From assembly GCA_964371625.1 (NCBI GenBank), contig CAYJMP010000002.1, positions 197,034-261,033 on the forward strand: 64,000 nucleotides of DNA, read 5' to 3'. Under the pieces are notes generated by a model. That model saw only the letters and a list, made by a program, of their open reading frames with translations. It did not search any database and was not told the DNA's origin. The stretch's first letter is position 1. Every line of letters begins with the position of its first letter. The position numbers were made by a program, and so were the translations under genes. Positions 9,944-60,400 of the stretch are shown here, piece by piece. Source of the DNA: an uncultured Ignavibacteria bacterium. GTDB lineage: Bacteria; Zixibacteria; MSB-5A5; WJJR01.

Positions 9944-9981
9944 ACACGCCCCCGGCGCTTCGCTGGGGGCGTGTTGCTTTT
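9944..9981 (+). terminator. Rho-independent terminator after protease gene
   Basis: Stem acacgccccc/gggggcgtgt followed by tgcttttc. Confidence 0.5.
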
Positions 9982-11948: not shown

Positions 11949-12101
11949 CAGAAACCGCTGTGTTGTGAATCAGGAGGATAGGCATTCCTGCCTGTCTATC
12001 GATTCGCGCGTGCCAATCGCTCACCGAAAGTCCCAAGCGGAGCCGAGGGATTGATTGGCCGCGCGAATCGAATGGGTGTGCGCCGACGTCCCTCGTCGCA
12101 A

Positions 12102-12144
12102 GTGCCCCACAGTTTTGTCCGCCGCAGGCGGACTTGCTGTGGGA
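12102..12144. repeat. 43-bp nested-hairpin repeat, copy 1
   Basis: gtgccccacagttttgtccgccgcaggcggacttgctgtggga; exact reverse complement present at 12297..12339. Confidence 0.8.
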
Positions 12145-12296
12145 CTCATCCAATGAGTAGATTTCCTTATGAATTGATTGCAACTGTTCGCCAATCCAGC
12201 GCAGTGCGTGTGCTCGAGTTTCAATGCGTATCACGGGATGGCGGACATCCCGCTGACGGTAGAGCCGATTCCACTTTGATTTCGCGAATGAGAGAT

Positions 12297-12339
12297 TCCC
12301 ACAGCAAGTCCGCCTGCGGCGGACAAAACTGTGGGGCAC
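12297..12339. repeat. 43-bp nested-hairpin repeat, copy 2 (inverted)
   Basis: Exact reverse complement of 12102..12144; 152-bp spacer between copies. Confidence 0.8.
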
Positions 12340-13230: not shown

Positions 13231-13256
13231 TGGATCACTTCACGCGCGAAGCGCGA

Positions 13257-13280
13257 GTGCCCCACAGCCTTGTTCGCCGC
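13257..13280. repeat. Degenerate third copy of the 12102 repeat
   Basis: gtgccccacagccttgttcgccgc, about 20 of 24 positions identical to the start of copy 1; lies just downstream of ORF 12466..13230. Confidence 0.5.
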
Positions 13281-21716: not shown

Positions 21717-21726
21717 CCTATGCCCT

Positions 21727-21767
21727 CGTCATTGCGAGGCGGGCGTTCTTCGCCCGACGAAGCAATC
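21727..21767. repeat. Dispersed intergenic palindromic element, copy A
   Basis: cgtcattgcgagg + palindromic core cgggcgttcttcgcccg + acgaagcaatc; same termini recur at 23716, 40800 (inverted) and 40875. Confidence 0.7.
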
Positions 21768-21839
21768 CCCTTTGTTATCACTCAGCGCCCGATGTCTCCT
21801 TCAAGGAGACCTCGGGCGTTGTTCATTTGAGAGTATCGC

Positions 21840-23705: not shown

Positions 23706-23715
23706 CGCGAAGAAT

Positions 23716-23782
23716 CGTTATTGCGAGGAGAGAGGCGTTTTTATCGCCGACCGACGCTTGTCCGCCGCGGCGGGAAGCAATC
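23716..23782. repeat. Dispersed intergenic palindromic element, copy E (longer core)
   Basis: cgttattgcgagg ... ggaagcaatc termini with GC-rich palindromic core (gtccgccgcggcgg). Confidence 0.6.
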
Positions 23783-23919
23783 TCTGTTCAGCGGACCGCC
23801 CCGCCCTCTTGCCCGGCGCCCTAACATTTCCTATTTTGCGTACGACTCACATCCAGTTTGGGTGGCCCTGATCCGCCGCGGCGGATTAGGGCAAGCGAAG
23901 CGAGCAGACCGACATTTCC

Positions 23920-33187: not shown

Positions 33188-33236
33188 CGTCATTCCTCAT
33201 TCCGTCGCTCTTTGACGGAATGAGGAATCTTTTTTC
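33188..33236 (+). terminator. Strong rho-independent terminator after RRM gene
   Basis: 15-bp perfect stem attcctcattccgtc/gacggaatgaggaat, loop gctcttt, followed by cttttttcc. Confidence 0.65.
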
Positions 33237-35980: not shown

Positions 35981-38449
35981 ATGATCGAGCTACACGCCAA
36001 GATTAAGGAAGTCGCGGGGAAACCCGAGGGCCAGGTCCTTGTAAACATCAATTACGATATCATCAAACAGATGTCAGCGCAGCTTTACACGAATCCACGA
36101 AAGGCGATCGAGGAGCTGGTCTGCAATGGGTACGATGCTGGTGCAACCGAGTGTCATGTAAAACTGCCGCTGAATGAGTCCGATTCACTTGTCGTACTGG
36201 ACGACGGGGTCTCGATGGATCTCAATGGTCTCAGAGACCTTTGGATGGTAGCAAAGAGCCCAAAGTTGCCCGATCAGAATGGTCGAAGAGTTGGCAATAA
36301 CCGACTGCAAATAGGGAAGTTTGGTGTCGGCAAACTTGCCGCGTATGCTTTGGGCAGCCGATTGACTCATGTCGCTACCGTGGCAGGTGTGACAAGAGTC
36401 GTATCGGTTGGCGAAGATGAGATCAAAGAGCAACAAGGAGGTCGTGCTCCCAAATTCGAGGTCTACAAGATGCCAGAGTCGCAAGCGCGACAATACCTGG
36501 AACCTTACCTCGGTACCCTCCCCCGCCCATGGGATCGCGGATGGGACAGCTGGACCATCGCGGTGGTTGAGGGTGTAGAAAGCGGCAATATCGCTCGGGC
36601 TCTGAAGATCGGGATTCTCCGCAGGATGATCACGGCTGCGCTTCCGATTTCAAAGTCGTTCAAAGTCGTCCTCGAGGGAGAGACCGTCCCAATCCGAAAG
36701 ATCGAGCAAGCGGACATTGAACTCACGATTGACATTGGTGACGCAGAATTCCGCAAAAAACTTGAGTCAAATCTACGCGACTATTGGCAGAAACAGTTGT
36801 CGGCGACAACGCCGGAAGACGTGCCGGCCTCCTACTACAAACTCTCGAAGCAGAGAACGCCAGATCCTCTGGATGTAAGCAAAGAACTCAATGCAATCAA
36901 CGTGCCTCACTTGGGCCCAGTGGTAGGCAACGCCATACTTGCCAAGCACACCCTCACTACCGAGAAACTCGATGAGCGCGGGTATGTTAGCCACGGCTTC
37001 GCGGTTAAGGCGAATGGGAAATTAGTCAACCCGGAGGATGAACTGTTCGGGATATCTCCCCGGAGCCATGCGTATTGGAGACGATTCTTGGCGCGAGTCG
37101 AAATGCCGGGACTCGATGACGTTCTCTTGGTTCAACGAAATGCTGTCTCAGAAAAGAATCAGATGGCGCAAGTGGCACGTGAGGTATTGCGAACTCTTTT
37201 CGAGTACACTCGAACTCAATCCGAAGCAGCACTTGAGGCAGATGAGGTTCCACTAGAACCTTTCGGGTCAAAAGTTTCCAAAATTGCTCCGATGCTGGCT
37301 CCGTTGGCGCTTGAAGCGCTCAGCGGAGGAACTTTGCCTACAGACGGCCCAGCATCGGTGAAGATAGATTTCGTGACCCTCAAAGAAAGCAACTCTGCAG
37401 CTCAGTACGACGCGACTGATCATACAATTCAAGTAAACGTAGAGCATCCCATCATTGCTGCTCTCAATGACCTCCAGCGAGAGAATCAAAAACAATGGCG
37501 GAGAGTAATTGGCGAGATCGTGGCGGGCGGCAAGCTCGTGGAGGGACTTCTCATTGCGAGAGCGGTCAGGTCAGAAGTTATAAGTGAAGTTGAAGAGCTT
37601 CTGGATACAACACTACGCAGCGCTGCGAGCTTTATCCGTGACCCCGTAGAGGAGCATATCAGGGAGATCGATGAAGCTTCCTATGAGGGGGGAACCCGAT
37701 TCGAGAATGCAGTGGTAAATGCTCTGAGGAGTATGCGTCTAGTTGCATGGCACATTGGCGGTGCCGATAACCCAGATGGCATAGTTGAAATTCCAAGAGC
37801 TGGAGCGAAAAACCTCAGGATTTCTATCGAGGCTAAGGGGACGAAGGGAGTAATAACACACACAGAACTCAGCCAGGCTACTGTGGCTCGCCACGAAATG
37901 GAATCTGGCTGCACTTCCTCAGTGGCAATAGCACGAGAGTACCAAACCGAAGGTATTGGCGGCCAAGATAGTGGCTTAGTGCGGGAAACACAGGGAAAGC
38001 TCCCTCTACTGACGGTGTCCGCGATATCTAAGATGCTAAAGCTTCAACAGAAGCGACGGTTCACATATGACATGGTGGCCAAAATACTCACAATCTGGAC
38101 CGACCCGGAGGAGCTCGACGGCTTCGTGGAAGAGACATGGAGACAGCTGCCTGAGACTGGGCTAATGAGGCTGATTCTTGAGGTTGCGCATGACAAGATA
38201 GCAAACCACGAAGAAAACCTTCCCGATCCTGGTATGTTGGTTGATGATCCCCGTCTTGCTAAGCTAAAGATCAAGAAGGAGGCAGTCATTCATGTCCTGC
38301 AAGCAGTGGCCTTCACTACTAGAATGATAACCATACAGAATACGAGCAACTACGAATTCACGTTGAATGCGCCTGTGGAAACCATCCTCGACGCGATGAC
38401 CAAGGCCTCACAGGAGCAAATCGAGACGACGTCTAAATCTAAGTGTTGA
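35981..38449 (+). CDS. GHKL (MORC/HATPase_c_3-like) ATPase fused to a C-terminal PD-(D/E)xK-like nuclease motif
   Basis: Bergerat-fold motifs: N-box ELVCNGYDAGA, G1-like VLDDGVSMD, G2 GKFGVGKLAAYALG; C-terminal DNPDGIVEIP...LRISIEAKG resembles D...ExK; gene sits in a visibly AT-richer segment. Confidence 0.7.
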   Translation: MIELHAKIKEVAGKPEGQVLVNINYDIIKQMSAQLYTNPRKAIEELVCNGYDAGATECHVKLPLNESDSLVVLDDGVSMDLNGLRDLWMVAKSPKLPDQNGRRVGNNRLQIGKFGVGKLAAYALGSRLTHVATVAGVTRVVSVGEDEIKEQQGGRAPKFEVYKMPESQARQYLEPYLGTLPRPWDRGWDSWTIAVVEGVESGNIARALKIGILRRMITAALPISKSFKVVLEGETVPIRKIEQADIELTIDIGDAEFRKKLESNLRDYWQKQLSATTPEDVPASYYKLSKQRTPDPLDVSKELNAINVPHLGPVVGNAILAKHTLTTEKLDERGYVSHGFAVKANGKLVNPEDELFGISPRSHAYWRRFLARVEMPGLDDVLLVQRNAVSEKNQMAQVAREVLRTLFEYTRTQSEAALEADEVPLEPFGSKVSKIAPMLAPLALEALSGGTLPTDGPASVKIDFVTLKESNSAAQYDATDHTIQVNVEHPIIAALNDLQRENQKQWRRVIGEIVAGGKLVEGLLIARAVRSEVISEVEELLDTTLRSAASFIRDPVEEHIREIDEASYEGGTRFENAVVNALRSMRLVAWHIGGADNPDGIVEIPRAGAKNLRISIEAKGTKGVITHTELSQATVARHEMESGCTSSVAIAREYQTEGIGGQDSGLVRETQGKLPLLTVSAISKMLKLQQKRRFTYDMVAKILTIWTDPEELDGFVEETWRQLPETGLMRLILEVAHDKIANHEENLPDPGMLVDDPRLAKLKIKKEAVIHVLQAVAFTTRMITIQNTSNYEFTLNAPVETILDAMTKASQEQIETTSKSKC

Positions 38450-38460
38450 GAATTGGGTCA

Positions 38461-39828
38461 ATGGCCGCAAGATGTAGCAGTTCCCAATCAATCATGATAG
38501 ACGATCAGACAATTCAAGACGCGGACATGTTGCGATGGAATCAGTCTCACGGATTTCGCTTCACACACGACCTCTTCAAGTTTCCTGGGAAATTCCACCC
38601 TCCGTTAGTAGAGCACATCTTGCGTTCGATGAACCCTGCGGGTGTCATTGACCCCATGGCCGGTGTCGGAACGGTTGCTGTGGAGGCGAAGGCGGCCGGC
38701 GTCCCATCGCTCTCGCTGGATATCGATCCGGTGAGTACGTTTTTTGCACGGGTTAAGACTACTCCTATTGCACGGCGAACGCTGGACTGTGCTTGGAAGG
38801 ATCTCTCAAAGTCCTTACGCCGCTTTCGCAGAACGGACAACGAGATCGAGATTCGCAAATTTCGCGACTTGAGAGTCGATCGAATGCGCGGGCAGCTATC
38901 CACAGTGAATGCAAGTGATCTCGAAAGTCTGAGTTACTGGTTTCGCCGGTATGTCCTAGTCGACTATGCGAGGATCGACCATTCCATTTCCAATGGGGGG
39001 CTCCCCGGGAGATCGGAGATTGTGCGTCGATTCTTCCTAGCGTGCCTGATCAGTTCGATCCGCCGCATTAGCCTAGCGGATCCAAGTCCTGTGAGCGGCC
39101 TTGAAATTACGAAACACATGAGGGCTCGCATTGAGTGCGGGTACTTAGTCGATGTGTTTCGAGAGTTTGAGCGCCGCGTTGAGATTGCAATCCGGAGAAT
39201 GGATGAGTACGAATCGTACCTTAAGCAGTGCGGAACATATGACACTCCATCGCTGATTGAACAGACAGACTGCAGTAACTTGCTTGAATCAGCCGGTGCA
39301 CGGAAGATTGGTGCAGACCTGATTCTCTTCTCGCCACCGTATTGCAACGCAATCGAATACTGGCGACGACACAGATTAGAATATCTACTCGGGCGATTCC
39401 TTGACGAGAGAGAAATCTGCGAGCTTCACGCAAGCTTCATTGGTCGTACCAAAGTCGGGTCGACCAATGAATTTCCCCAAATGCTCGGTTATGTACCCGT
39501 TGACCGATTACTCTCCAGTCTAATCAAGGACGGAAGGCGGAAGAAGGCTCGAGTATTATCGCAATACTTTATCGACATGAGGGACCGACTACAGGTGTTT
39601 CGCGATTTTCTGCCCGTCGGTGGGTTCTGCGTTCTGGTTGTTGGGGACAGCGTAACCGGTGCGAAGAGAATACCGACCGCAAAGACTCTTGCGTGGATAG
39701 GTGCTGACTTGGGTTTTGATCATCTCAAGACAACGCGCTATAAAATCAAGAATAGAGTCATGCAATTTCCAATCAAATCGAATGCAAAGATCGAAAGTGA
39801 ATCGATCCTTGTTCTACAAAAAGTCTGA
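38461..39828 (+). CDS. SAM-dependent DNA methyltransferase (N6-adenine or N4-cytosine type)
   Basis: Motif I DPMAGVGTVAVEA and motif IV LILFSPPY; ORF overlaps or abuts the upstream GHKL gene stop (earliest GTG at 38443, ATG at 38461). Confidence 0.75.
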   Translation: MAARCSSSQSIMIDDQTIQDADMLRWNQSHGFRFTHDLFKFPGKFHPPLVEHILRSMNPAGVIDPMAGVGTVAVEAKAAGVPSLSLDIDPVSTFFARVKTTPIARRTLDCAWKDLSKSLRRFRRTDNEIEIRKFRDLRVDRMRGQLSTVNASDLESLSYWFRRYVLVDYARIDHSISNGGLPGRSEIVRRFFLACLISSIRRISLADPSPVSGLEITKHMRARIECGYLVDVFREFERRVEIAIRRMDEYESYLKQCGTYDTPSLIEQTDCSNLLESAGARKIGADLILFSPPYCNAIEYWRRHRLEYLLGRFLDEREICELHASFIGRTKVGSTNEFPQMLGYVPVDRLLSSLIKDGRRKKARVLSQYFIDMRDRLQVFRDFLPVGGFCVLVVGDSVTGAKRIPTAKTLAWIGADLGFDHLKTTRYKIKNRVMQFPIKSNAKIESESILVLQKV

Positions 39829-40020: not shown

Positions 40021-40770
40021 GTGGAACCGACACAGACCGCCCCCGATCTGCGTTTGCATACCAGCGGCCTGGTGAAATCCTACCGCCGCCGCCGCGTGGT
40101 TAATGGCGTCACCGTCGAGATCAGTCCCGGCGAAGTTGTCGGCCTGCTCGGCCCCAATGGCGCCGGCAAGACCACGACCTTCTACCTCACCATCGGCTTC
40201 ATCAAGCCCGATGACGGCGAAGTTTTCCTCGGCGACCGCCGGATCACGAAGCTGGCGATGTACCGACGCGCCCGTCTGGGTATCGGCTACCTGCCCCAGG
40301 AACCCTCAATCTTTCGCAAGATGTCCGTCGAGGGCAACATCCTCGCGATTCTCGAAACCCAGGGCATCCCGCGCCCCGCGCGCAAGATTCGCCTCGATGA
40401 ATTGCTTACCGAATTGAACATCGCGCACGTGGCGAAATCGAAGGGGTACCAGCTCTCCGGCGGCGAACGGCGACGTGTCGAGATCGCCCGCGCTCTGGCC
40501 ACACGCCCCAAATTCATGCTCCTGGATGAACCCTTCGCCGGAATCGACCCGATCGCCGTGGAAGATATTCAGGGAATTGTCGCGGGACTGCGAACCAAGG
40601 GGCTCGGGGTGCTTATAACCGATCACAATGTGCGTGAGACGCTGGCCATCACCGACCGAGCCTATATCATGTGCGACGGCGAAATCTTGAAGGAAGGCAC
40701 ATCAGAATACCTCGCAAATGACCCGGAAGCGCGTAAGATATATTTGGGAGAGAGATTCCGACTGAACTAA
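40021..40770 (+). CDS. lptB: LPS export ABC transporter ATP-binding protein
   Basis: Walker [11 protein letters not shown], signature LSGGERRRV, Walker B FMLLDEPF; LptB-like length. Confidence 0.85.
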
Positions 40771-40799
40771 GGTTAGCCCATGGAATTTGTAGAGAAAAA

Positions 40800-40849
40800 G
40801 ATTGCTTCGTCGGTCCGGCATAAAGCCGCCGACCATTCTCGCAATGACG
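40800..40849. repeat. Dispersed intergenic palindromic element, copy B' (inverted orientation)
   Basis: gattgcttcgtc ... attctcgcaatgacg, i.e. the reverse complement of the cgtcattgcgag...gacgaagcaatc termini. Confidence 0.65.
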
Positions 40850-40874
40850 ATGGCAGGGAAAGCCCTGGGAAAAC

Positions 40875-40917
40875 CGTCATTGCGAGGAGGAGCGCTCTCC
40901 GCGACGACGAAGCAATC
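40875..40917. repeat. Dispersed intergenic palindromic element, copy B
   Basis: cgtcattgcgagg aggagcgctctccgcg acgacgaagcaatc; 25 bp from the inverted copy B'. Confidence 0.7.
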
Positions 40918-40950
40918 TTTGTCACCGCGCCAACGAGATAATTCCTGACC

Positions 40951-41892
40951 ATGCGACTCTTCAGCAACATGACGCTCAAACTGCTCGCCATCATCTTTGC
41001 GATGTTGTTGTGGTTCCATGTTGCGACCAATCAGGAATACGACCAGGAAATCCTCTATACAATCAGCTACGTGAACATCCCCAGCTCGCTGGTCATGGCG
41101 AGCGCCTCGGACAACGAAGTTGCTGTGCACATGCGCGGTTCGGGAAAAGGACTGATGCGGCTCATGTGGGGCGAACGCCGCTGGCCCATCGATCTGTCCC
41201 GTGCAAAAGTCGGAACCCAACAGATTCACATTCTTGCCGACAACATACCGCTCTATGGCATCAAAGACCTGTCTGTCCTCGGACTTGTCGATTCCGACAC
41301 CCTGACCGTCATTCTCGACAGCATCGGCCAGAAGACCGTCCCGGTCCGCAGTTCCGTCGAAATCGCTCCAACCGCCGGCTTCGTCTGTTCCACTGATCCG
41401 ATCCTGACTCCCGACTCTGTCGTCCTCACCGGCCCACGCACCAACCTCGAGCGTGTCGAGGAAGTCTGGACCCAGCCCGATCTGATCAAAGATGTCCGCG
41501 ATCCCGTCGAACGGCTCTTGTCACTCCTGCCGGCCAAATCCTATGGCGTGACAATGAACGTTGACCACATAAGTCTCTATCAGAAAGTCGAGCCATACCT
41601 CACCCGTGCCTTTTCTGCCGTGCCGGTCCAGGTCACCGGGCGTCACGAATCCGAAGGACTCGATATCAGCCCTTCCTACGTGATCGTCGAGGTCGCCGGA
41701 CCGCAGTCAGCCGTGGTTCAGCTTATTGCCGACTCGATTAATGTGAGCTGCGAGCCGCTCCTGTTGGACGAGAATAAGCTCTCGGTCCGCACCAAAGCAT
41801 CAGTGCCTTCGCCTTTGAGGGTCTTGAAGCTGTCGCCGGATTCTGTTACCGTGGAACGTCATGAGCGTACGCGGGCCGATTCTGGGGATTGA
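40951..41892 (+). CDS. Membrane-anchored hypothetical protein (YbbR-like repeats, tentative)
   Basis: N-terminal TM helix (LKLLAIIFAMLLWFHVA) then repeated beta-rich modules; family assignment uncertain. Confidence 0.4.
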   Translation: MRLFSNMTLKLLAIIFAMLLWFHVATNQEYDQEILYTISYVNIPSSLVMASASDNEVAVHMRGSGKGLMRLMWGERRWPIDLSRAKVGTQQIHILADNIPLYGIKDLSVLGLVDSDTLTVILDSIGQKTVPVRSSVEIAPTAGFVCSTDPILTPDSVVLTGPRTNLERVEEVWTQPDLIKDVRDPVERLLSLLPAKSYGVTMNVDHISLYQKVEPYLTRAFSAVPVQVTGRHESEGLDISPSYVIVEVAGPQSAVVQLIADSINVSCEPLLLDENKLSVRTKASVPSPLRVLKLSPDSVTVERHERTRADSGD

Positions 41893-47566: not shown

Positions 47567-49198
47567 TTAGAATTGCAGGCTCATTCCCGCTTCCAACCTG
47601 TGCCCGCGCGTGTCGTCCCCGCCACTCAACTGACCGAGAGCATTGAGCGCGAGTGCCTGGGTAATTCCAACCCGGACTGTCAGATCCGCGCGTCGATTCA
47701 GACGGGCGTCGGAATTGCCTGCGAGAGTGTAACTGTACAGTCCCGCGCCAAGGCTGATCCAGTCGCGTTGACCAACACCCTGTCCCAAGGATGCGTTGAG
47801 ATTGTAACCGGAGGTGGCATCGCTCACGAAACGGACCCCCTGCACGCTGAAACTGCTCTTGGGGTTGAAAAGACCCTGCTTGCGCACGGCGCCATTGTAT
47901 GAGGTTGTCCGGTCCTGCTCTCCTTCCACTGAACGCACACCCGCACCGGCGGACAGATAGATCCCTTCCGGCAAGGCAAGATCGAATTGCGTCCGGACAC
48001 CCTGACGCACACGATCATCAAAGATGCTGTCGGCGATATCACGCGTCTCGTAGGTCCGGTAGCTCTTACGTGTGTCGTAGGACACCGACGCGGTGAGACT
48101 GCGCGTGAGATTCACCCGCCCCTGTGCGTAGATCGTCGAGAGACTGATTGACTGACTGTTTTCACTCTTGCGCCAGCCGCGATTGACATCAAGCTCGAGG
48201 CTGTGACTGAGGTTCCAACGGCCATTGCGTGCCATGCGGCCTTGGGCGAACAGCGCCTCGCGGCTCGCCGTCCCGCCATGGTACTGCCCGACGACGGAAA
48301 ACGTCTGATCCAGCAGGAAGTCGCGCGCCGACCCGCGCCGGTAACCAGCATACGCGCCGTAAGTCTGAAGATTCGGGCGATTCTCTGCGTACTGCCATTG
48401 CGAATTGGCTCCACCGAAAATCCCGATGCGCGCGAATTGCGAAACACGATACTCAATGGAACCGCCATCCAGCCGGCCGATGGCGCCCACGCGTGCTGGA
48501 TTGATTCGACCCATCGACATCCCTGCCCGCGAACCTTCGGGTTTGTACTCCAAAACGAAAGTCGCAATGCGACTCTCCCAAGAGTTCTCACGACCATCAT
48601 CACTGGGAACAACACGGCGATCCCGTCTCCCCGACGTTCGAAGGGCGAATGACAGCCCCGGCGTCCAGAGTGGCTCGACGCGGAGATCGATATCGACCCG
48701 CCCCTGGCCGAAATCCAGCCCGGCATCGCTGTGATCGTCCCAGTTGCTGTACATCATCGCAATTGAGCCAGATGCCTCCGGATGGATCGCCGGACCATCA
48801 TTGACGCGGGATTCGACGGGATCTACTCGTTGAATCTGGGAGAGCGCTTCTGCGGTTGACTGGGGAGCTGGTTCGGAGGTATCTGGCACGGCACGAAGCT
48901 CAACGTTGAGCTTGACGACATCACCTACCGATAGACTCACAACGGGTTCAGGCATCCGGCACGCCGAAGAGTGTTCTGCCAGATGGAGCACCTCGAGTTC
49001 GGCGATTTTCTGATCGTCACGGAATACCACGGGTCTCGCCCCGACAAACAGTCCTTCCGCCCTGCCCCCATTCAGATACACCAGGTCCGCGGAAACAAAT
49101 GTCACCTTGAGCACACGCTCGATGGTTTCCGCGCAGACCACAGACGCAGACAACAGGAGTATCGCGACGCAAATCGAGACGGCGACAAGAGATCTCAC
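47567..49198 (-). CDS. Outer-membrane beta-barrel protein (putative porin partner of the cytochromes)
   Basis: Signal peptide; alternating aromatic/hydrophilic beta-strand pattern; C-terminal ...GMSLQF with terminal Phe; GTG start overlaps cytochrome stop (GTGA). Confidence 0.6.
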   Translation of the reverse strand: MRSLVAVSICVAILLLSASVVCAETIERVLKVTFVSADLVYLNGGRAEGLFVGARPVVFRDDQKIAELEVLHLAEHSSACRMPEPVVSLSVGDVVKLNVELRAVPDTSEPAPQSTAEALSQIQRVDPVESRVNDGPAIHPEASGSIAMMYSNWDDHSDAGLDFGQGRVDIDLRVEPLWTPGLSFALRTSGRRDRRVVPSDDGRENSWESRIATFVLEYKPEGSRAGMSMGRINPARVGAIGRLDGGSIEYRVSQFARIGIFGGANSQWQYAENRPNLQTYGAYAGYRRGSARDFLLDQTFSVVGQYHGGTASREALFAQGRMARNGRWNLSHSLELDVNRGWRKSENSQSISLSTIYAQGRVNLTRSLTASVSYDTRKSYRTYETRDIADSIFDDRVRQGVRTQFDLALPEGIYLSAGAGVRSVEGEQDRTTSYNGAVRKQGLFNPKSSFSVQGVRFVSDATSGYNLNASLGQGVGQRDWISLGAGLYSYTLAGNSDARLNRRADLTVRVGITQALALNALGQLSGGDDTRGHRLEAGMSLQF

Positions 49199-52100
49199 TC
49201 GTCCCCCCGCGGGTGGCAGCTATAACACGCTGCGCTGAGGTACTGATACCCGTTTACTTCGTTGTGGTCGTCGTCCGTGTCAGTCCTGTTGTGCTCGTGG
49301 CAGAGGATGCACTCGAAGGTGGCGAAACTGGCCGAGTTGACGTGGCAGTCGGCGCAGTCATTCCACTTGTCTTTGTGTTTACCTGAGTAGATCGGGAAGT
49401 ATTGCGAATCGTGATTCCAATTGGCCGGAGTCCAGGCGGTCGTCGTATGGCATGTCTGGCACGTTGTCGGAAATCCTGCCGCCGCGTGATCGGGCGTCGC
49501 CGTGCTGTAATCGCTGCTGTGGCAGGCGAAGCACTCCGAGGACGTCCCGCTGTACCCTGATGCGTGGCAACTGTTGCACGTCACGGTCCGATGCGCACCG
49601 GTCAGCGGGAACCCCGTCTGATTGTGATCATAGGTCGCGGGTGTCCATGCGGTCGTCGTATGACACACTGTGCACTGAGTCGAGAAACCCGCGGTCACGT
49701 GATTGGGATCGGTGACACCGGTGTAATCGCTTTCATGACACGCCAGACATGCGGTCGGAGTGCCTGAGTACCCGATCGAGTGGCAGCTGTTGCATGTCAC
49801 CGTGATATGCGCGCCGGTCAATGGGAACGCGGACTGATTGTGATCGAATGACGCCGGTGTCCAGCCGCTCGTTGTGTGACACTGTTCGCAGAGTGTCGGG
49901 AAACCCGAGCTGACGTGATTCGGATCACTCGCTCCGGTGAAATCATCATGATGACAAGCATCGCATGCCGATGGCGTCCCGGTGTATCCCGCTGCGTGAC
50001 AGCTCGCGCAGGTCGTCGATGTGTGCGCTCCCGTCAACGGAAATCCGCTCAGGTTGTGATCGAAGGACGATGGTGTCCAAGCCGTCGTCGTGTGACACTG
50101 CTCACAGAGAGTTGGAAATCCCCCGGTGACGTGATTGGGGTCGGTGACTCCCGAATAATCACTCGAGTGGCAGGCGTAACACGCAGATGATGTTCCCGCG
50201 AATCCGGTTGAATGACAGCTGTTGCAGGTCACGCTCTGATGCGCTCCGGTCAGCGTGAATCCGGTCTGCGTGTGTGACCACGTCGATGGGTCCCAACTCG
50301 ACGTGTTGTGGCATTGCGTGCAGGTGGTCGAGAACCCCGCCGCCGTGTGATTGGGATCGGTGACGCCAGTGAAGTCGGCATGATGGCAGGCATCGCACTC
50401 GGTTGGTGTTCCCGTATATCCACTCGCGTGGCAACTGACGCATGTGACCGAGCGATGTGCTCCGGTCAACGCGAATCCACTGAGATTGTGATCGAAGGAT
50501 GATGGTGTCCACGCCGTCGTCGTGTGGCATTGCTCACAGAGTGTGGGGAATCCTCCGGAGACGTGGTTGGGGTCGGTGACCCCGGTGTAGTCGCTTGCGT
50601 GACAGGCGTAGCACGCCGCGGCAGTCCCCGCGAAGCCGGTGGAATGACAACTGTTACACGTGACACTTTGATGTGCTCCGGTCAGTGTGAACCCGGTTTG
50701 CGTATGCGACCAACTCGACGGGTCCCAATTCGACGTGCTATGGCACTGCACGCAGTTCGTGGAGAATGCCGCCAATGAGTGATTGGGATCGGACGCGCCG
50801 GTGAAATCACTGTGGTGACAGGCATCGCACTGCGTCGGTGTCCCGGTGTACCCACTCGCGTGACACTTGACGCATGTGATCGTCCGGTGTGCACCGGTCA
50901 GGGCGAATCCGGTTAAGTTATGATCCAATGTCGCAGGCGTCCAGCCGGCGGAAGTATGGCATTGGGCACAGGCTGTTGAGAATCCTGCGCTGATGTGATT
51001 CGGGTCGATCACGGCCAGGTAATCGGCGTGATGGCAGGCATCGCATTGCGTTGGTGTGCCCGCATACCCGGATGTATGACAGCTCGCACAGGAAACCGCG
51101 GTGTGTAGTCCTGTCAGTGCAAAACCTGTGGTGCTGTGGTTGAAAGTCGCCGGCTCCCAGGCAGACGTTCCATGGCATTGCGCGCAGTCGGTCGGAAAAC
51201 CCGAATGAGAGGGATCGTCCGCTTGCGTGAAATCGGTCTCATGGCAGGCGATGCACGCCGAGGCTGTCCCCGTGTACCCGGTCGTGTGGCATTGATTGCA
51301 CGCCACCGCCAAGTGCGCGCCGGTCAATGGGAATCCGGTCAGGTTATGATCGAGAGTCGCCGGCTCCCATGCCGCGGTTGTGTGGCATTGTGTGCATTCG
51401 GTCGGAAACCCGTTCGCTGCGTGACCCGGGTCGTCCGTGTTGGTGTAATCGGATTCATGGCAAGCGAAGCAGGCCGACGGTGTCCCGGTATACCCTGAGG
51501 CATGGCAATTATTACAGCTGACAGAGACGTGAGCGCCCGTGAGCGGGAATCCTGTCAGATTGTGATCGAGAGTGGCAGGAGTCCACGCCGTCGTGGTGTG
51601 GCACTGAGTGCACTCGGTTCCAAAACCGGCCGCCACGTGGTCCGGATCATCGACACCTGTGTAATCCGGCTCATGACAGGCGAGGCAGGCTGACGGTGTA
51701 CCCGTGAATCCCGAGGTATGGCAATTGTTGCATGAGACAGCGATATGGGCGCCAGTCAACGGGAAGTCGGATAGATTGTGATCCCAATCGGCCGTCTCCC
51801 ACGCCGACGTCGCGTGACATGTCGCACAGTCTGTAGAGAAATGCGAACCGTCATGATCGGGGTCGGCGGCGCCTGTGTAGTCAGTGGCATGGCAGGCATA
51901 GCATAGAGTCGAAGTTCCGGTGAAACCTGATTGGTGACAATCGTTACAGGCCGCAGCCACATGCGCACCCGTCAACGGGAAATCCGTCAGGTCGTGATCA
52001 ATGTCGGCCGGCTCCCATGCGGATGTCGTGTGACACTCCGCGCACTCGGTGGAGAAATCCGAAGCGACGTGATTGGGATCGACCGCCCCAGTGAAATCAC

Positions 52101-54321
52101 TCTGGTGGCACGCCAGGCATTCCGATGATGTACCGGTGTAGCCCGATGTGTGACAATTCTCGCACGTCACTGAGACATGCGCGCCCGTTAACGGGAAGGC
52201 CGTCAGATCGTGATCGAGATTGGCCGGTTTCCAAGCCGATGTCGTGTGACAGAGGGCGCACTCCGTCGGGAACCCCGCCGCCGCATGATCCGGATCCGGA
52301 GCCGCAGCATAATCGCTGCTGTGGCACGCATTGCATGTCAATTCTGTCCCCGTATATCCACTCGTGTGGCAATTCTCGCAAGTGACGCTCACATGCGCAC
52401 CCGTGAGCGGGAATCCGGTCAGGTTGTGATCGAGATTGGCCGGATCCCACGCCGAAGTGGTATGGCACTGCGCGCATTTTGTCGGGAAGCCGGCGGTGAC
52501 GTGATTGGGATCGGCCGCCAGCATGTAGTCGCTTTCATGGCATGCCACGCACTCGGATTGAGTTCCAGTGTATCCCGAAGCGTGGCAGTTCACACAGGAC
52601 ACTGCCGCGTGCGCGCCCGTCAGTGAGAACCCCGTGAGATCGTGATCAAGATTCGCCGGTGTCCAGGCCTCGGTCGTGTGACATTCCGAGCATTCAGTCG
52701 AGAATCCGGCAGCCGCATGATCCGGGTCGGGTGCGTTGGCATAGTCGTCACCGTGGCATGCGAGGCACGTGGACTGCGCTCCTGTGTACCCGCTGGCGTG
52801 GCAATTCTCGCACGTCACGCTCGCGTGGGCGCCGGTGAGCGGAAATCCCGTGAGATCATGATCGAGATTGGCCGGCCGCCAGCCTGCTGTTGTGTGGCAT
52901 TGCGTGCATTCAGTTGAGAATCCCGCCGTGACGTGGTTGGGATCTGCTGCTGTTGTGTAGTCCCCTTCATGGCAGGCAACACACGCAGTTGCCGTCCCCG
53001 TGAAACCCTCCGAATGGCAATTGTTGCAGGTCACCTCGACATGCACCCCGGTCAGCGGGAACCCAGTCATGTCGTGATCGAGATTCGCCGGAGTCCAACC
53101 GGATGTCGAATGGCACCCGGCGCACTCAGTTGAAAACCCTGCCGCGAGATGGTTCGGATCTGGCGTCGTACTATAATCGTTTTCATGGCAAGCGTAGCAG
53201 TCCGACGACGTGCCAGTATATCCTGATGTATGGCAGTTTTCGCAAGTGACGGCGACGTGTGCCCCGGTGAGCGGGAAATGTGTCAGGTCGTGATCGAGAT
53301 TCGCCGGCGCCCAGTCCTCCGTGCTATGGCAGAGCACACACTCCGTAGGGAATCCGGCCGTCTGGTGATTCGGATCTTCGGCGGTCGCGTAGTCGCTCTC
53401 ATGACAACCCGCACAGGTCGAAGCCGTGCCGGAGAATCCTTCAGTATGGCAACTGTTGCATGTCACCTCGACATGCGCACCCGTGAGCGGAAACGTCGTC
53501 AGATTATGATCGAGTTCGGCCGGAATCCAGGCAACCGTGGTGTGGCACTGGACACACTGTGTCGCAAATCCCGCTGTCACATGGTCCGGGTCGGGTGTCT
53601 CGCGGAACTCAGTTTCATGACAGGCAAAGCAGTCGGTCGAGGTGCCAGCAAATGCGGTCGCATGGCAACTATTGCATGACAAGGCCGCGTGTGCGTTTGT
53701 GAGTGGAAATGTCGCTGGGTGATCGTATACCGCGCTCGCCCAAGTGAGCGCTCCCGCTCCATGACACGACTCGCATTCCTGTGAGAATCCCGCCAAAGCA
53801 TGCTCGGGATTCGTGGCAGCCTGATAGTCGCCACTGTGGCATGAGGCGCATGCCGTCGAAGTCCCCGCGTATTCGCGCGGCATCTGATTCACATGGCAAG
53901 CGCCGCAATCGGCGATGGCGTGCGCGCCGGTAAGCGCGAAGCCCTTCTGCGCATGTTGTTCGAAGACTTCGCGATTGTTCTTCCAGTTTTCCGGGGTGTG
54001 GCAGGTTTGGCACTCGGTCCCTAGCTGGCCGCGATGGACATCGGCGTGGCAATCGGCGCAGGCCGATGCGGTCTCCACAAATTTGAGATCCTGGTGGCAG
54101 GTCGCGCACCGCGTCTTGGCGTGGACTCCAACCAGCGGAAAGCCCGTCTCCCCATGCGCAAATCCCGATGGCTGACGCATGTCCGTCCATGACTTCATCG
54201 TGTGGCACTGCTGACAATCCCAACGAATCTCCCCGTGCGGATTCAGGATCATCGTCTGTGCCGCCACGCTGACACAGAGGAGAGCAACCAGGACAGCTGC
54301 GAGGGCAAGAGTGCGCTTCAT
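49195..54321 (-). CDS. Giant multihaem cytochrome c (~70 CxxCH motifs by manual count)
   Basis: Signal peptide MKRTLALAAVLVALLCVSVAAQ; about 20 tandem ~56-aa modules each carrying three CxxCH; start ATG overlaps upstream cytochrome stop (ATGA at 54318-54321). Confidence 0.85.
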   Translation of the reverse strand: MKRTLALAAVLVALLCVSVAAQTMILNPHGEIRWDCQQCHTMKSWTDMRQPSGFAHGETGFPLVGVHAKTRCATCHQDLKFVETASACADCHADVHRGQLGTECQTCHTPENWKNNREVFEQHAQKGFALTGAHAIADCGACHVNQMPREYAGTSTACASCHSGDYQAATNPEHALAGFSQECESCHGAGALTWASAVYDHPATFPLTNAHAALSCNSCHATAFAGTSTDCFACHETEFRETPDPDHVTAGFATQCVQCHTTVAWIPAELDHNLTTFPLTGAHVEVTCNSCHTEGFSGTASTCAGCHESDYATAEDPNHQTAGFPTECVLCHSTEDWAPANLDHDLTHFPLTGAHVAVTCENCHTSGYTGTSSDCYACHENDYSTTPDPNHLAAGFSTECAGCHSTSGWTPANLDHDMTGFPLTGVHVEVTCNNCHSEGFTGTATACVACHEGDYTTAADPNHVTAGFSTECTQCHTTAGWRPANLDHDLTGFPLTGAHASVTCENCHASGYTGAQSTCLACHGDDYANAPDPDHAAAGFSTECSECHTTEAWTPANLDHDLTGFSLTGAHAAVSCVNCHASGYTGTQSECVACHESDYMLAADPNHVTAGFPTKCAQCHTTSAWDPANLDHNLTGFPLTGAHVSVTCENCHTSGYTGTELTCNACHSSDYAAAPDPDHAAAGFPTECALCHTTSAWKPANLDHDLTAFPLTGAHVSVTCENCHTSGYTGTSSECLACHQSDFTGAVDPNHVASDFSTECAECHTTSAWEPADIDHDLTDFPLTGAHVAAACNDCHQSGFTGTSTLCYACHATDYTGAADPDHDGSHFSTDCATCHATSAWETADWDHNLSDFPLTGAHIAVSCNNCHTSGFTGTPSACLACHEPDYTGVDDPDHVAAGFGTECTQCHTTTAWTPATLDHNLTGFPLTGAHVSVSCNNCHASGYTGTPSACFACHESDYTNTDDPGHAANGFPTECTQCHTTAAWEPATLDHNLTGFPLTGAHLAVACNQCHTTGYTGTASACIACHETDFTQADDPSHSGFPTDCAQCHGTSAWEPATFNHSTTGFALTGLHTAVSCASCHTSGYAGTPTQCDACHHADYLAVIDPNHISAGFSTACAQCHTSAGWTPATLDHNLTGFALTGAHRTITCVKCHASGYTGTPTQCDACHHSDFTGASDPNHSLAAFSTNCVQCHSTSNWDPSSWSHTQTGFTLTGAHQSVTCNSCHSTGFAGTAAACYACHASDYTGVTDPNHVSGGFPTLCEQCHTTTAWTPSSFDHNLSGFALTGAHRSVTCVSCHASGYTGTPTECDACHHADFTGVTDPNHTAAGFSTTCTQCHNTSSWDPSTWSHTQTGFTLTGAHQSVTCNSCHSTGFAGTSSACYACHSSDYSGVTDPNHVTGGFPTLCEQCHTTTAWTPSSFDHNLSGFPLTGAHTSTTCASCHAAGYTGTPSACDACHHDDFTGASDPNHVSSGFPTLCEQCHTTSGWTPASFDHNQSAFPLTGAHITVTCNSCHSIGYSGTPTACLACHESDYTGVTDPNHVTAGFSTQCTVCHTTTAWTPATYDHNQTGFPLTGAHRTVTCNSCHASGYSGTSSECFACHSSDYSTATPDHAAAGFPTTCQTCHTTTAWTPANWNHDSQYFPIYSGKHKDKWNDCADCHVNSASFATFECILCHEHNRTDTDDDHNEVNGYQYLSAACYSCHPRGDE

Positions 54322-56003
54322 GGCGTCGCCCCCTTGGCTGTCACACTGTCTGTCCCGTGGCAGGCGCGACAACTCCTGTCATCAATATGATAGTCCACAA
54401 ACGCGAAAGCGGCGTCCTGGGTGGGCTTATGACAGCCAGCGCAAGGCACCTTGGCGTGCGCGCCGTCGAGCGGGTATTCAGTTAGCTTGTTGTGATCAAA
54501 GAGCGTGGCCTGCCAATTTGAAGGCGTGTGGCAGCGGTCGCATCGGATTTGTGGCACCGTATCGGCAACCGCAAACTGACCACGGTGCACATCGCGGTGG
54601 CACATCTCGCAATCACGACGCAACGGTGCGAACGCAAGCCGGGCAATGTCCACGGCATTCGAATCGCCGCGGTGGCATGATGCGCAATTGACAGACGCAT
54701 GCTTTCCCGTCAAGGCGAAACCAGTGCTGTCGTGCGCAAACACAACCGCGGACCAGCTTGCTTCCGAATGACATTCTTGGCACCCGGAGCGCTCGACGAT
54801 CCGTGCTAACTGACCCTTGTGGACATCCTTGTGACAATCCTGACAGCGCATTGACGACCACGTGTAATGCCCCTCACGCGCCACCATGTTTCCTTTAGCA
54901 TCGCCATGGCACTGAACACACGGCAAGGCCAAGTGCGCCTGGCGTAACGTGAATCGCGTGGCCTTATGTTGTTCGATGGTGAATTGTGCAGGCATATACC
55001 CGGCGACAGTGTGGCACTCTTCACACGCGCCGCCCTGCGCCCGGTCGGCGAACTCGCCTTTGTGATGGTCCTGATGACAATCACGACAGGCTTGGAATTT
55101 CAGGCCGCTCTTGGGTTTGCCAGCCGCATGGCATTTGTCGCAGGCAACTATCCTGTGACGTCCTTCCAGCGGATAACGGGTTTTGCTGTGATCGAATCCC
55201 GCTTGCTCCGCGACCTGCCACCCTGTCGTCGTATGGCATCCCTCGCACCGCGATCCGAGACGCCCCGCGTGGGAATCCTTATGGCAGTTGCTGCAATTCT
55301 CGTGTCGCACATTGGCAAAACGCGAGTACTCGTGATCGGTCGTCGAACTCGGATCTTCGACTTTCTGATGACATTTGGCGCAGGCCGTCGTCTCGTGGCG
55401 GCCGGTCAGAACGAACTTCGTCCGGTCATGATCGAACCCAGGCGCCGGTGACCATCCCTCAAATGTGTGACAGCGATTACAGTCCGAAGCCAGCTGGCCA
55501 CGGTGCTCGTCGAAATGACAGGACGCACAACTCGTATCCAAACCGAGGTAAGTCTTGGAGAGGTCTTTCTGTCGGAGTCGGAGCTGCTCGCTATCCCGAT
55601 TGAAGTCGGTCTTGTGGCAGGCACGGCACGTCGTCTTCGCATGCTTTCCTTGAAGCGGGTAGCCTGCAAGTTGGTGATCGAAACCCTTTTCACCGGCCTT
55701 CCAGTAGATCAAGTCGAAATCACGCCCATGGTGTTCCACGTGGCAGTTCTCACATTCCCGATACTCGGCCTGCGCGTGCAACCCGCGTCCGCGATCGATG
55801 CGCGCCTGCATCTCGGTGTGACAGCTGAGACACTTGCCGTGCATCTGATCCGAATCCCGATCATGGCACTTGTTGCAGTTCTCGACACCGTCCAAAAAGG
55901 CGTGGGAACGATGCAGATCGCCCGGCGACAGTTGCGCGTTCGCTCTTTGGCAGAGTGTGGCCATCATGATAAATCCGACGATCTGTGCCAGCCCGCGAGG
56001 CAT
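54318..56003 (-). CDS. Multihaem cytochrome c (~20 CxxCH motifs)
   Basis: Internal ATG with signal peptide MPRGLAQIVGFIMMATLCQRANA; about 20 CxxCH counted. Confidence 0.85.
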   Translation of the reverse strand: MPRGLAQIVGFIMMATLCQRANAQLSPGDLHRSHAFLDGVENCNKCHDRDSDQMHGKCLSCHTEMQARIDRGRGLHAQAEYRECENCHVEHHGRDFDLIYWKAGEKGFDHQLAGYPLQGKHAKTTCRACHKTDFNRDSEQLRLRQKDLSKTYLGLDTSCASCHFDEHRGQLASDCNRCHTFEGWSPAPGFDHDRTKFVLTGRHETTACAKCHQKVEDPSSTTDHEYSRFANVRHENCSNCHKDSHAGRLGSRCEGCHTTTGWQVAEQAGFDHSKTRYPLEGRHRIVACDKCHAAGKPKSGLKFQACRDCHQDHHKGEFADRAQGGACEECHTVAGYMPAQFTIEQHKATRFTLRQAHLALPCVQCHGDAKGNMVAREGHYTWSSMRCQDCHKDVHKGQLARIVERSGCQECHSEASWSAVVFAHDSTGFALTGKHASVNCASCHRGDSNAVDIARLAFAPLRRDCEMCHRDVHRGQFAVADTVPQIRCDRCHTPSNWQATLFDHNKLTEYPLDGAHAKVPCAGCHKPTQDAAFAFVDYHIDDRSCRACHGTDSVTAKGATP

Positions 56004-57454: not shown

Positions 57455-60400
57455 TTATCTGATCAGCGTCATCTTACGCGTGGCGTTCCACTTGGGAGTC
57501 ATCACGCGATAGAAGTAGACACCGCTGGCGACCTCGGAGCCGTCGCGGTCGCGGCCGTCCCAACTCACCCGGACATTGCTCGCATCCGCCGATCCCTCAA
57601 AGGTCCGGACAACCTGACCTAGAACGTTGTATATCGACACGTTCCAGTCCGTCGCCTCCTTCAGATCAAATCCAATCACCGTTCCGGCATTAAAGGGATT
57701 GGGATAATTCTGAAGCAATGCATACTCCGTGGGGACGATCGCTTTCGCCGCCGTCGTCGACAAGAGCGCCCCATGGGCATCGGACAATTGCACCTCCACC
57801 AACTCGATGGTGCCTTCACCATTTGTCGGGATGGACAACACGTCCTGATGACCGGCGCCGATAGTCGCCCACTCGCCTTCCCATGACGGATGAATGAGGA
57901 CGCGCAATTCCCCGGCATTGGCCAGATAACGGACAGTCATACCGGCTCCGCCAGCCATCAACGCCGGCTCTCCGACGGCCAGGCCCTCGTAGCGGAAGAC
58001 AAGCAAAGCGCCGCCCAAATCAACTGGCGCCGATGTCGCCACTGTCAGGTGTTTGTCCTCGACCCGGACCACAGCGGTCCCTGAATTCGCGTACGGCGAG
58101 AGCTTCGGCGAGCCGGTTCCCGTTCCGGGCGGGAACGGCTGCTCGTCGCCGGTGATGACGCGGATCAGGTAGATCAGGTCCGCCACCGTGAGGACGATGC
58201 CGTCATCGTTCACGTCGCTCGCCAGGATCTGGACCTCTTGCCAGGTCGGATCCCACACCCACGAACCATAGATGAAGTAGTTCGTGAACAGAACCGCGTC
58301 ACCGACCTCATTGGCGATGCCGTTGAGGTTGATATCGCCGCGGTCATCCGGTGGCTCCATGATGCACACATATCCGGTCGAGAAGCAGATTCCCGGAATC
58401 GGGTTGACCTTGGCGTTCGACTGGCAAGTATCAACAATCATCAGATGATCGACCCAGGTCGTATCGCCCGAGCGGCTCGATATCGTATTGTCGCCGCAAT
58501 CGAGCCAACAGAAGTTGATCGGCACACACTGGCCAATCAGGTTCCGGTCTGGAGAGACTTGGAAGGTCAATTCGGCGATTGAACCGATCGGATTGTACAC
58601 CGACTCCGGCGGCGTGATGCCATTGTTCATGTTCGCGATGCCGATCAGTCGCACGTACCCCGACGGGCAGGCGCCCACGCAGTTCCCGTTGGGTCCATAC
58701 CGGTACGTGAAGTACTCCCAATCCTCAATCGCCTCCGCGCTGTTGGCATACAAGAAGGTCAAGACCGATTGATCGTAGCAGATCAGGAAGTCAAACCCGC
58801 CGATGGGTCCCGCCACGCTGTCGATATTGACCGGCACAGTCACCTGCTGTCCGTTCAGGATCTGCAGCGTGCCGTCACCATCGCCGATCGACACGATCAG
58901 CAAGCAGTTACAGAGATCTTCATCGATGTCAAGGTAGACACAGAAGCTCTGCTGACACGATTCGCCGCAGGCGTCGGTGCAGCGGATCGTCACACACACC
59001 TGGCCGTTCCCAAACGGCGTGTAAACCCAGTTGCCGTTGATGAGACTGCCGGGGCCGTTGATGATCTGGCAACTGACGAGATTGCCGTCCGGATCAATGG
59101 CACCCACCGGAATCGAGACCTGCTGAGGAACGCAATTCTGATGGATCGTCAGATCTCCGGGAATCTGGCATTGCGGCGGGTCATTCAGATCAAATGTGAC
59201 CGTGAAATCGCCGTCCGCGTACGCGCCGCAGGAATCCGTCACGCGGAAAACGATCGTCACCACCTGATCGCTGTTGGAGTTGTAGCACCACTGACCGTTT
59301 GCGATCGTTCCCGGACCGCTGATTTTGGTAATCGTAACCGGTTTGCCCTCGGGATCGGTTCCGCAGACCGGCACACAGATCTGCGCGTTGTCACATTGCG
59401 AAACAGTCGTGTCGCTAACCTGACAGGCCACCGGCGGCTGATTGCGCGTTACGGTCACGTTGACCGTGTCGTAATCAGTCGCACCGCAAGTGTCCTGCAC
59501 GCGGGCCACGATCGTATAAACGCCACCGGCAGGAGGCGTGAAACAAACACGATTCAGCACCTGATCCAGCACCGCTCCGCCCGGACCGGCAATCAACGAC
59601 TCAGTGAGGGCGTTGCCGTTCGGATCGGTCGCAGTATAGTCGACGCAAATCGGCTCGGCGTTGCATTGGAACACGGCCTTGTCGGCGCCGAAGCTGATGG
59701 AAGGTGGATCGTTCGTGGTAACCGTTACAACCACCGTGTCACAATCGGTGAGCCCGCAACTGTCGGTCAGACACACAATGATCGGGAAGCTGCCCTCGCC
59801 GGCAGGAGTGAAACACACCTGGTTTGCGCCGGCATTCAACACCGCGCCGGCCGGACCTGAGGCGAGCACCTCACTCGAACCATTCAGGCCATTCGGGTCG
59901 CTTGTCGTGTAATTCACACAGATCTGCGCCGGCGTACATTGGAACACGTTTTGATCCGGACCGAATGCAATCACCGGCGGATCGTTAACCTGGACGCTGA
60001 CGTTGAAGCTGCTTTCACAGAAGTTATTGCAATCGTCGCTGCAACGGATCGTCACCGAGAAGGACGCGTCGCCGACCGGCGTGTAAGTCCAGTTGCCACT
60101 GACCACATTGCCCGGTCCAACCGTAACGACGCACGTCGGCGTCGCGTCACAGTTGTCTGTTGCCGACACCGGAATCGTGATCTGCGTCGGCGCGCATTGG
60201 AAGTAGTTGAACGGTCCCGCCGGAATGTTGCAGACCGGCGCCTGCGTATCCTGAACGGTGATGATCTGCGTGCAGGTTGCCTGATTGCCGCAATCATCGA
60301 CCGCGGTCCAGACTCGCGTGATTGTGCCCGAATAGCCGCCGCACCCTGTGAGATTCGGAGTCTCGACCAGAGTCGGAGCCACGCTCGGATCACAGTTGTC

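Follow-up and report, generated by a model that had tools for sequence, protein, structure and literature searches.

Probable REP-type, CGTC-tagged repeats with an interrupted stem in a 64-kb stretch of bacterial DNA, with matches in distant bacteria and phage contigs

The window, by which we mean the whole 64-kb stretch of DNA that was analysed, carries four copies of a short structured repeat, all of which reside in spacers between co-directional genes. The genes upstream of the copies encode ribosomal protein L25/Ctc (copy A), a sulfatase-family protein (copy E), and LptB (the pair B′/B); the LptB protein matches TIGR04406 with 356 bits against a cutoff of 240, and the gene past the B′/B pair encodes a YbbR-like protein. 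The four copies, the spacer within the pair, and one hairpin that lies outside the repeat family are as follows:

21727–21768, plus strand: copy A, identified by its exact termini; it starts 10 nt past the stop codon of the L25/Ctc gene
23716–23783, plus strand: copy E, degenerate, identified by the half-site search; it starts 10 nt past the stop codon of the sulfatase-family gene
33188–33235, plus strand: intrinsic terminator of the RRM (Rbp) gene, identified by its fold and the terminator scan; outside the repeat family
40800–40849, minus strand: copy B′, identified by exact half-sites and sequence; it starts 29 nt past the lptB stop codon
40850–40874, no strand: inter-copy spacer of B′/B, 25 nt, which separates the two CGTC ends
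40875–40917, plus strand: copy B, identified by exact half-sites and sequence; it ends 33 nt ahead of the ATG of the YbbR-like gene

Each copy, read on its own strand, is built on the shared frame CGTC ATTGC GA G [core] C GAA GCAAT C, which comprises a (C)GTC tag, an ATTGC...GCAAT foot, a GA/GAA internal loop, and a variable apical hairpin. Copies B′ and B both read CGTCATTGCGAG...CGAAGCAATC, each on its own strand, and share these termini with A, which is also exact, and with E, which carries one mismatch per terminus (its tag is CGTT and its 3′ arm is GGAAGCAATC); the ATTGC/GCAAT pairing is present in all four copies. As the original prediction held, the common termini enclose different cores. 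On the minus strand, B′ reads CGTC-ATTGC-GA-G[AATGGTCGGCGGCTTTATGCCGGACCGA]C-GAA-GCAAT-C, with a 28-nt core that appears in the folds as the hairpin GTCGG(CGGC...GCCG)GACCGAC, and B reads CGTC-ATTGC-GA-G[GAG GAG CGCTCTCCG CGA CGA]C-GAA-GCAAT-C, with a 21-nt core in which, as read from the sequence, G-C pairs alternate with tandem G.A/A.G mismatches. The core of copy A is GCGGGCG-TTCTT-CGCCCGA, and that of copy E spans 45 nt and is made up of two sub-hairpins. The bases that follow GCAAT in the window copies are C+CCC, C+TCT, C+TTT, and C+TTT. The elements had been described as palindromic, a term that suits the 5 bp of the conserved arms that form Watson–Crick pairs but not the remainder, which is a G.A-rich internal loop and a variable hairpin.

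A relaxed two-half-site scan of the 64 kb, in which at most two mismatches per half were allowed, returned exactly four copies (A, E, B′, and B), compared with 0–2 matches, and a mean of about 0.25, in 20 shuffles of the window. A family of at least four or five members had been anticipated; four are real and the fifth is not. The degenerate copy suspected near 6766–6810 contains neither half-site and folds no better than shuffled sequence (z +0.35), and this candidate was ruled out on both grounds.

The anticipated head-to-head pair of one element at 40800–40917 is borne out by exact half-sites, with the tag (CGTC) ends of B′ and B facing each other over 25 nt. The spacer between them holds a small hairpin, CAGGG-AAAG-CCCTG (40854–40867), which forms the apical loop region of a composite fold in which the pair becomes one long hairpin, with an energy of −69.3 kcal/mol as RNA (z −7.9) and −37.7 kcal/mol with DNA parameters (z −7.1). 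With DNA parameters, copy A adopts the family fold at −12.3 kcal/mol (z −3.07), and the fold of copy E is not better than those of its shuffles.

A second, unrelated palindromic repeat is present elsewhere in the window and follows the plan GTGCCCCACAG-TTTTG-TCCGCC-GCAG-GGCGGA-CTTG-CTGTGGGAC (12101–12147, 12294–12339, and 13256–13280). Two of its copies are inverted, 46 nt long, 98% complementary, and separated by 146 nt, and the third is partial. A similar TCCGCCGCGGCGGGA sub-hairpin, with two mismatches to the core pattern of this second repeat, resides within copy E (23761–23775), and a related palindrome is found at 23858–23899.

The repeats were predicted to lie immediately 3′ of genes, and the window copies do so, at 10, 10, and 29 nt past stop codons. 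Stem-loops directly downstream of stop codons could be Rho-independent terminators of the upstream genes, all the more so as the similarly tagged hairpin of the RRM gene is a textbook terminator. However, a consensus terminator scan is blank at A, E, B, and B′, and no T-run follows any of the four copies on the gene strand. The tails read CCCCTTTG, TCTCTGTT, and TTTGTCAC, and B′ alone is followed by T5, which lies on the strand opposite to the genes. By the standard criterion the window copies are not terminators, and termination is a most improbable explanation of the elements.

In copies A and E alike, exactly 10 nt separate the stop codon from the start of the element (the intervals are 21717–21726 and 23706–23715), which places the hairpin foot 14 nt from the stop; this shared distance may be a coincidence, or may reflect a constraint tied to the terminating ribosome. 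Directly past copy A, at 21786–21818, a separate long hairpin, CGCCCGA...TCGGGCG, is followed by TTGTTCATTT; it goes unreported in the consensus terminator scan, and the L25/Ctc gene may in fact be terminated here.

The hairpin behind the RRM gene had been regarded as a relative of the repeats. It is real, and it starts with CGTC-ATT and ends with AAT-C, but these ends are all that it has in common with the family, whose GCGAG/CGAAGC arms it lacks. It consists of CGTC + ATTCCTCATTCCGTC / GACGGAATGAGGAAT + CTTTTTT, with a perfect 16-bp stem (−28.5 kcal/mol, z −5.9), and the consensus scan calls it terminator-like (33192–33235, 16 pairs). Its membership in the repeat family was considered and rejected: a loose scan of the window for CGTC-tagged perfect hairpins raised only the RRM hairpin above noise, and a metagenome scan with its inner palindrome gave 44 scattered matches, with the same composite in none. 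The RRM hairpin is a plain intrinsic terminator, akin to the repeats at the superfamily level at most.

Outside the window, the family was searched for with an exact pattern consisting of GTCATTGCGAG, a gap of 8–38 nt, and CGAAGCAATC, in a genome collection holding one genome per species (596 Gb) and in the viral contigs of IMG/VR. The 21 fixed bases of this pattern are present in at least 120 stretches of the genome collection, which span a dozen or more phyla, and in at least 120 contigs of the viral set; by our own estimate, from 21 fixed bases and 31 gap lengths, about 8 chance matches are expected in the genome collection. According to record titles, the hosts among the matches listed belong to Alpha-, Gamma-, and Deltaproteobacteria, Helicobacter, Chloroflexota, Patescibacteria, Cyanobacteria, Bacteroidota, Ignavibacteriota, Zixibacteria, Latescibacterota, Planctomycetota, Omnitrophota, Armatimonadota, Spirochaetota, and Clostridia-type MAGs, and many of the loci listed hold several copies. 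In deposited phage genomes the element is rare, with matches to three metagenomic "Bacteriophage sp." records only, in which it is unannotated. Because the copies in other genomes were found by exact arm match only, the conservation of the arms is in part a matter of ascertainment. Rfam returned tRNA only for the window at the gathering score, no match for nine copy-rich loci, and chance-level matches only in a permissive scan of 40760–40960, and a literature search with the arm sequences and typical full elements returned only primers and unrelated matches. Among the matches listed, the surrounding spacers are unidirectional in 57 cases, convergent in 27, and divergent in 7, according to rough ORF calls.

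The 372 distinct copies among the matches listed define the unit more closely. GTC is preceded by C in 49% and by T in 45% of them (94% together), the ten bases ahead of the tag are pyrimidine-rich, the tail past GCAAT is C followed by [C/T][A/C]G (CCAG in Alphaproteobacteria), and the cores range from 5 to 59 nt in length. Of the 5-nt cores among the matches listed, 81% read CGNAG, yielding G-CGNAG-C, a two-pair stem with a GNA triloop, and the commonest 11-nt cores there are GA-NN-GNA-NN-GA, in which the NN pairs covary. Covariation across 34 distinct, aligned 32-nt elements scores 0.129, compared with 0.058 for shuffled elements, and none of 500 shuffles reaches 0.129. The first variable pair in these elements is GC in 21, AU in 8, and CG in 1, the second is CG in 28, UG in 3, UA in 2, and AU in 1, and the two positions adjoining the variable pairs are either G.A/A.G or Watson–Crick. 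Arm variation in 171 variant copies is greatest at bases 2 and 3 of the 3′ GAA, which is consistent with a bulged base, and the outer stem shows a few compensatory changes, with T-A to C-G in 6 cases, plus wobble variants.

In the fold model that we propose, a 5-bp foot is interrupted by a conserved purine internal loop (5′ GA / 3′ GAA) containing tandem G.A pairs and a bulged, variable base, and is followed by a G-C pair and then by a hairpin that maintains its pairing while its sequence varies freely. Nearest-neighbour energies are −2.7 kcal/mol for the canonical short form and −2.8 kcal/mol for the canonical long form (z about 0), not better than those of shuffles. Support for the proposed G.A-stabilised fold therefore comes from covariation, and from the stability in DNA of GNA triloops and of sheared G.A pairs, and not from energy modelling. 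Extension of the hairpin by its flanks, or landing of the elements in pre-existing palindromes, was considered and rejected, as the duplex energies of the 5′ and 3′ flanks do not differ from those obtained with shuffled pairings. Complementarity to the anti-Shine–Dalgarno sequence, noted in a few phage copies, is anecdotal.

The covariation also bears on the proposal that the elements are binding or structural sites in double-stranded DNA, read through their conserved arms by a gyrase, a nucleoid protein, or a recombinase, in the manner of the E. coli BIMEs. Conservation is far higher in the arms than in the core, the placement is intergenic, the geometry of the doublets is regular, and such roles are given to REPs in the published literature (PMC3733652). 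Duplex DNA recognition, however, needs no covariation of the core pairing; the occurrence of the same arms in very distant phyla and in phages argues against a single host protein, and related genomes manage without the elements. Sites of this kind are a highly unlikely explanation of the family.

Inverted doublets are frequent, with 65 among the matches listed, of which 60 have their 3′ ends facing and 5 their tag ends facing; the B′/B pair of the window belongs to the rarer, tag-facing arrangement. The spacers of these 65 inverted dimers are mostly 15–41 nt, and doublet spacers are palindromic (cag...ctg) and conserved between Bradyrhizobium loci. Most doublets among the matches listed are heterodimers of a long-core unit and a short-core unit. 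In Bradyrhizobium genomes, the doublet behaves as a repeated unit, as in REPINs.

The orientation of the elements relative to genes was assessed among the matches listed. In bacterial loci, according to rough ORF calls, the element and the flanking genes share a strand in 33 cases and lie on opposite strands in 24, and in viral loci the copies are sense only in 33 and antisense only in 28, one viral locus (L135) having seven copies that are all antisense to genes. Single copies along one viral contig nevertheless share their orientation in 24 of the 29 loci, compared with 11.8 expected, and no orientation bias was found among the copies of the bacterial loci listed. In 69 of the 92 viral loci listed, the locally C-rich strand is the one that bears the element's top strand (t = −5.6), an association that could not be separated from effects of transcription or composition, and the bacterial loci listed show no GC-skew bias (32 vs 34). 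The uniform orientation within contigs, combined with the mixture of sense and antisense, is more readily explained by a DNA-strand-specific process than by a role as RNA.

These orientations have to be set against the view that the elements are functional RNA stem-loops of 3′ untranslated regions, which would stabilise the message, be cut by RNase III, or bind a protein, and which would spread little. The four window copies do lie close behind stop codons, with A and E at the same 10-nt distance, and divergent spacers, which hold promoters, are depleted among the matches listed (7 of 91). The arm variants show a modest excess of G.T over A.C (29 vs 14), and the B′/B pair, which lies within one operon, as a relative suggests, would form a 118-nt hairpin of −69 kcal/mol. 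An RNA element, however, would hardly be oriented at near-random to genes in both bacterial and viral loci or be antisense in all seven copies of L135, and the elements match no Rfam family and are missing from the orthologous spacer in three relatives. The GNA triloops and tandem G.A pairs, moreover, form on one strand only, yet both orientations occur. An RNA function of this kind is thus unlikely, and termination or 3′ processing, a role implied by the original prediction, is not supported as the primary property, in view of the lack of T-runs, the near-random orientation across the family, and the relatives' spacer without the element.

The spacer between lptB and ybbR could be compared directly, as the YbbR-like protein has relatives of 66–68% identity, whose contigs (L242, L243, and L244) keep the gene order lptB–ybbR–tsaD. 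This spacer is 9 nt long in L244, about 86 nt in L243, where it holds an unrelated hairpin, and 226 nt in L242, where it holds other hairpins. The element family is absent from the lptB–ybbR spacer in all three relatives, and a relaxed two-half-site scan of 56 kb of their sequence gave no real copy. The hairpins of the L242 spacer form a cluster (9800–9950), one of which starts with TGTC-AT (TGTCATCGCGGC...GCCGCGGTGACATC). The comparison suggests that different palindromic repeats have landed repeatedly in the lptB–ybbR spacer.

Other features of the window also stand out in this comparison. Directly upstream of lptB, at 35981–39828, two genes have a G+C content of 0.51–0.52, compared with about 0.58 elsewhere; the first encodes an 822-aa protein that contains an HATPase_c_3 domain and weakly matches BbrUII/HgiDII-type restriction enzymes, and the second a 461-aa protein of no family. 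As lptB directly follows the preceding gene in L244, this segment looks like an inserted island, and it is possibly a defence island. Two giant repeat ORFs lie on the minus strand, one of 1725 aa with about 16–20 tandem 216-nt (72-aa) units (49195–54372), whose orthologues in relatives give faint multihaem cytochrome matches, and one of 2176 aa with 258-nt (86-aa) units (57455–63985).

Filled and empty sites are also seen among related phage contigs: at several orthologous intergenic positions, one contig carries the element and others lack it. The right boundary of the filled sites lies directly past GCAATC, and the left boundary is ragged, 8–15 nt ahead of the tag, within a variable, pyrimidine-rich leader. 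Three cases give hints of CTC(A)/TCA on both sides, to be read with this ragged left boundary in mind, and at the filled and empty sites compared no target duplication was established and no defined target tetranucleotide was found. A MITE is defined by terminal inverted repeats that match an IS and by a target-site duplication; here, the sole inverted terminal similarity is ATTGC/GCAAT, and no parent IS was seen. The elements are repeated, insertion/deletion-polymorphic, and independent of the genes that flank them.

In several loci, tandem duplications of the 5′ half only (leader + GTCATTGCGAG + a few bases) precede a complete element (L156 at about 6118–6230, L099, L002, L040, L041, L074, and L110), and their copy number varies between related phage contigs, with three in L156 and one in L233. 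One hotspot is the spacer ahead of a phage major-capsid-like gene (L123 at 4290–4440, compared with L121, L181, L178, L239, L170, and L221). In L123, a CGTC-type element lies there between the Shine–Dalgarno sequence and the start codon, and of the other contigs three are empty and three carry unrelated A+T-rich repeats of 110–160 nt.

The unpaired (C/T)GTC tag and the stem that starts with A-T/T-A (ATTGC/GCAAT) are hallmarks of a known repeat superfamily, as is the short C-rich tail, which is less clear in the window copies than across the family; on these grounds the elements of the window are probably REP-type, CGTC-tagged repeats. The best reading of the whole is a REP/REPIN-like, insertion-polymorphic element, which would act as a single-stranded hairpin and be mobilised by a putative enzyme. 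By analogy with such systems, we tentatively propose, as the likeliest mode of action, that the unit may act and spread as a folded single DNA strand and that a trans-acting nuclease or transposase recognises the foot YGTC-AT...AT-CC. This putative enzyme would be encoded away from the element, as in REP/RAYT and IS200/IS605 biology. Near the copies in 120 bacterial and 120 viral loci among the matches listed, no protein family proved enriched, and the neighbours were ordinary genes and phage structural modules, with no nuclease or transposase; the genes between neighbouring doublets are housekeeping genes, with no mobilising enzyme. In the same reading, B′/B would be a REPIN-analogous inverted doublet, inserted into a spacer that is just 9 nt long in a relative. 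As a secondary effect, B′/B in the lptB–ybbR message could give rise to a long RNA hairpin that slows 3′ exonucleases or is cut by RNase III; any effect on the transcript would probably be a by-product and not the reason for the existence of the pair.

A bolder version, which we consider quite unlikely, is that the whole CGTC superfamily is propagated during replication by one putative, very widely distributed activity, which would operate in a dozen or more phyla and their phages and would read, on one DNA strand, only the foot YGTC-AT...AT-CC. If this single-activity version were true, the G.A-rich, GNA-looped top strand would be a DNA-specific fold, and the elements would constitute a new class of trans-mobilised, single-strand hairpin parasites and not decayed REPs.

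Few non-coding features of bacterial genomes are as common as REP-type repeats, and we know of no account of how the CGTC-tagged half of them spreads or what role it has. Across very distant bacteria and phage contigs, the arms of the present family stay identical over 11 and 10 nt, with a middle that varies, and the defined ends, the strand, and the likely DNA fold of the family provide handles on the mechanism of mobilisation. Recognition of the family is also of use in annotation, where it avoids spurious small ORFs and false "terminator" calls in many MAGs.

The apical parts of the elements resemble motifs described in DNA biophysics. Hirao and colleagues, and Chou and Reid, reportedly described extraordinarily stable DNA mini-hairpins, d(GCGNAGC), and sheared tandem G.A pairs. 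The exact G-CGNAG-C occurs in 81% of the short-form, 5-nt cores among the matches listed, and the longer forms stack G-C pairs with tandem G.A/A.G, as in the sheared motifs; unlike the repeats, these are biophysical motifs and not genetic elements, and their relevance to the repeats is one that we infer. In the IS200/IS605 family, the foot of a subterminal hairpin can direct cleavage, and the repeats resemble these hairpins in combining a hairpin with a short conserved flanking motif and in their strand-specific behaviour. They differ in the lack of tnpA and tnpB and in being units of 26–70 nt that have one hairpin instead of two distinct ends. The likeness to the GTAG REPs and REPINs of E. 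coli and Pseudomonas extends to the short, extragenic hairpin form with an unpaired tetranucleotide conserved at its foot, to the inverted doublet as a recurring unit, to probable recognition in single-stranded form, and to uniform orientation within small replicons. The tag, in contrast, is CGTC, and no RAYT (Y1 HUH) or other transposase lies by the copies in about 240 loci among the matches listed.

The closest comparison is with the CGTC-tagged REP superfamily of Di Nocera, De Gregorio and Rocco 2013 (PMC3733652). These REPs are described there as having a CGTC tag (with the variants TGTC and CCTC), stems that start with AT, and an unpaired tail with the consensus CCA; they are mostly intergenic, located after genes and between unidirectional or convergent ORFs, form inverted dimers with 20–100 nt spacers, have no linked transposase, and are reported from five phyla (PMC3733652). 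Families CGTC-1 to -4 have an uninterrupted stem of 8–9 bp and a loop of 4–5 nt, and the sequence given with the CGTC-3 peptide VIAGLDPAIH is GTCATTGCCGGGCTTGACCCGGCAATCCA and that given for CGTC-1 is GTCATTCCCGCGAAAGCGGGAATCC (PMC3733652). Measured against these descriptions, the present elements have the CGTC/TGTC tag (CGTC in A, B, and B′, and CGTT in E), the ATTGC...GCAAT foot in common with CGTC-3, a short C-rich tail (CCA/CAG) across the family, the location after genes in unidirectional or convergent spacers, frequent inverted dimers, of which that in the window has a 25-nt spacer, and no flanking transposase. The arm sequence is not among the REP-encoded peptides listed in the PMC3733652 supplement, and canonical REPs of the CGTC-1 and CGTC-3 types, with the frame YGTC-AT...AT-CCA, coexist with the elements in fetched loci. 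In contrast to families 1–4 as described there, the elements interrupt their stem after 5 bp with a GA/GAA loop, past which lie a G-C pair and a variable hairpin, the cores being 5–59 nt long. Because the uninterrupted 8–9-bp stem and the 4–5-nt loop are thus lacking, the elements would form a variant family of the superfamily that falls outside families 1–4; they are set apart by the written descriptions of those families, and may overlap with what is called "Bradyrhizobium CGTC-1 with unusual loops". Their hosts among the matches listed extend well beyond the five phyla of that account and include phage contigs, so that this interrupted-stem form of the superfamily has an unusually wide host range.
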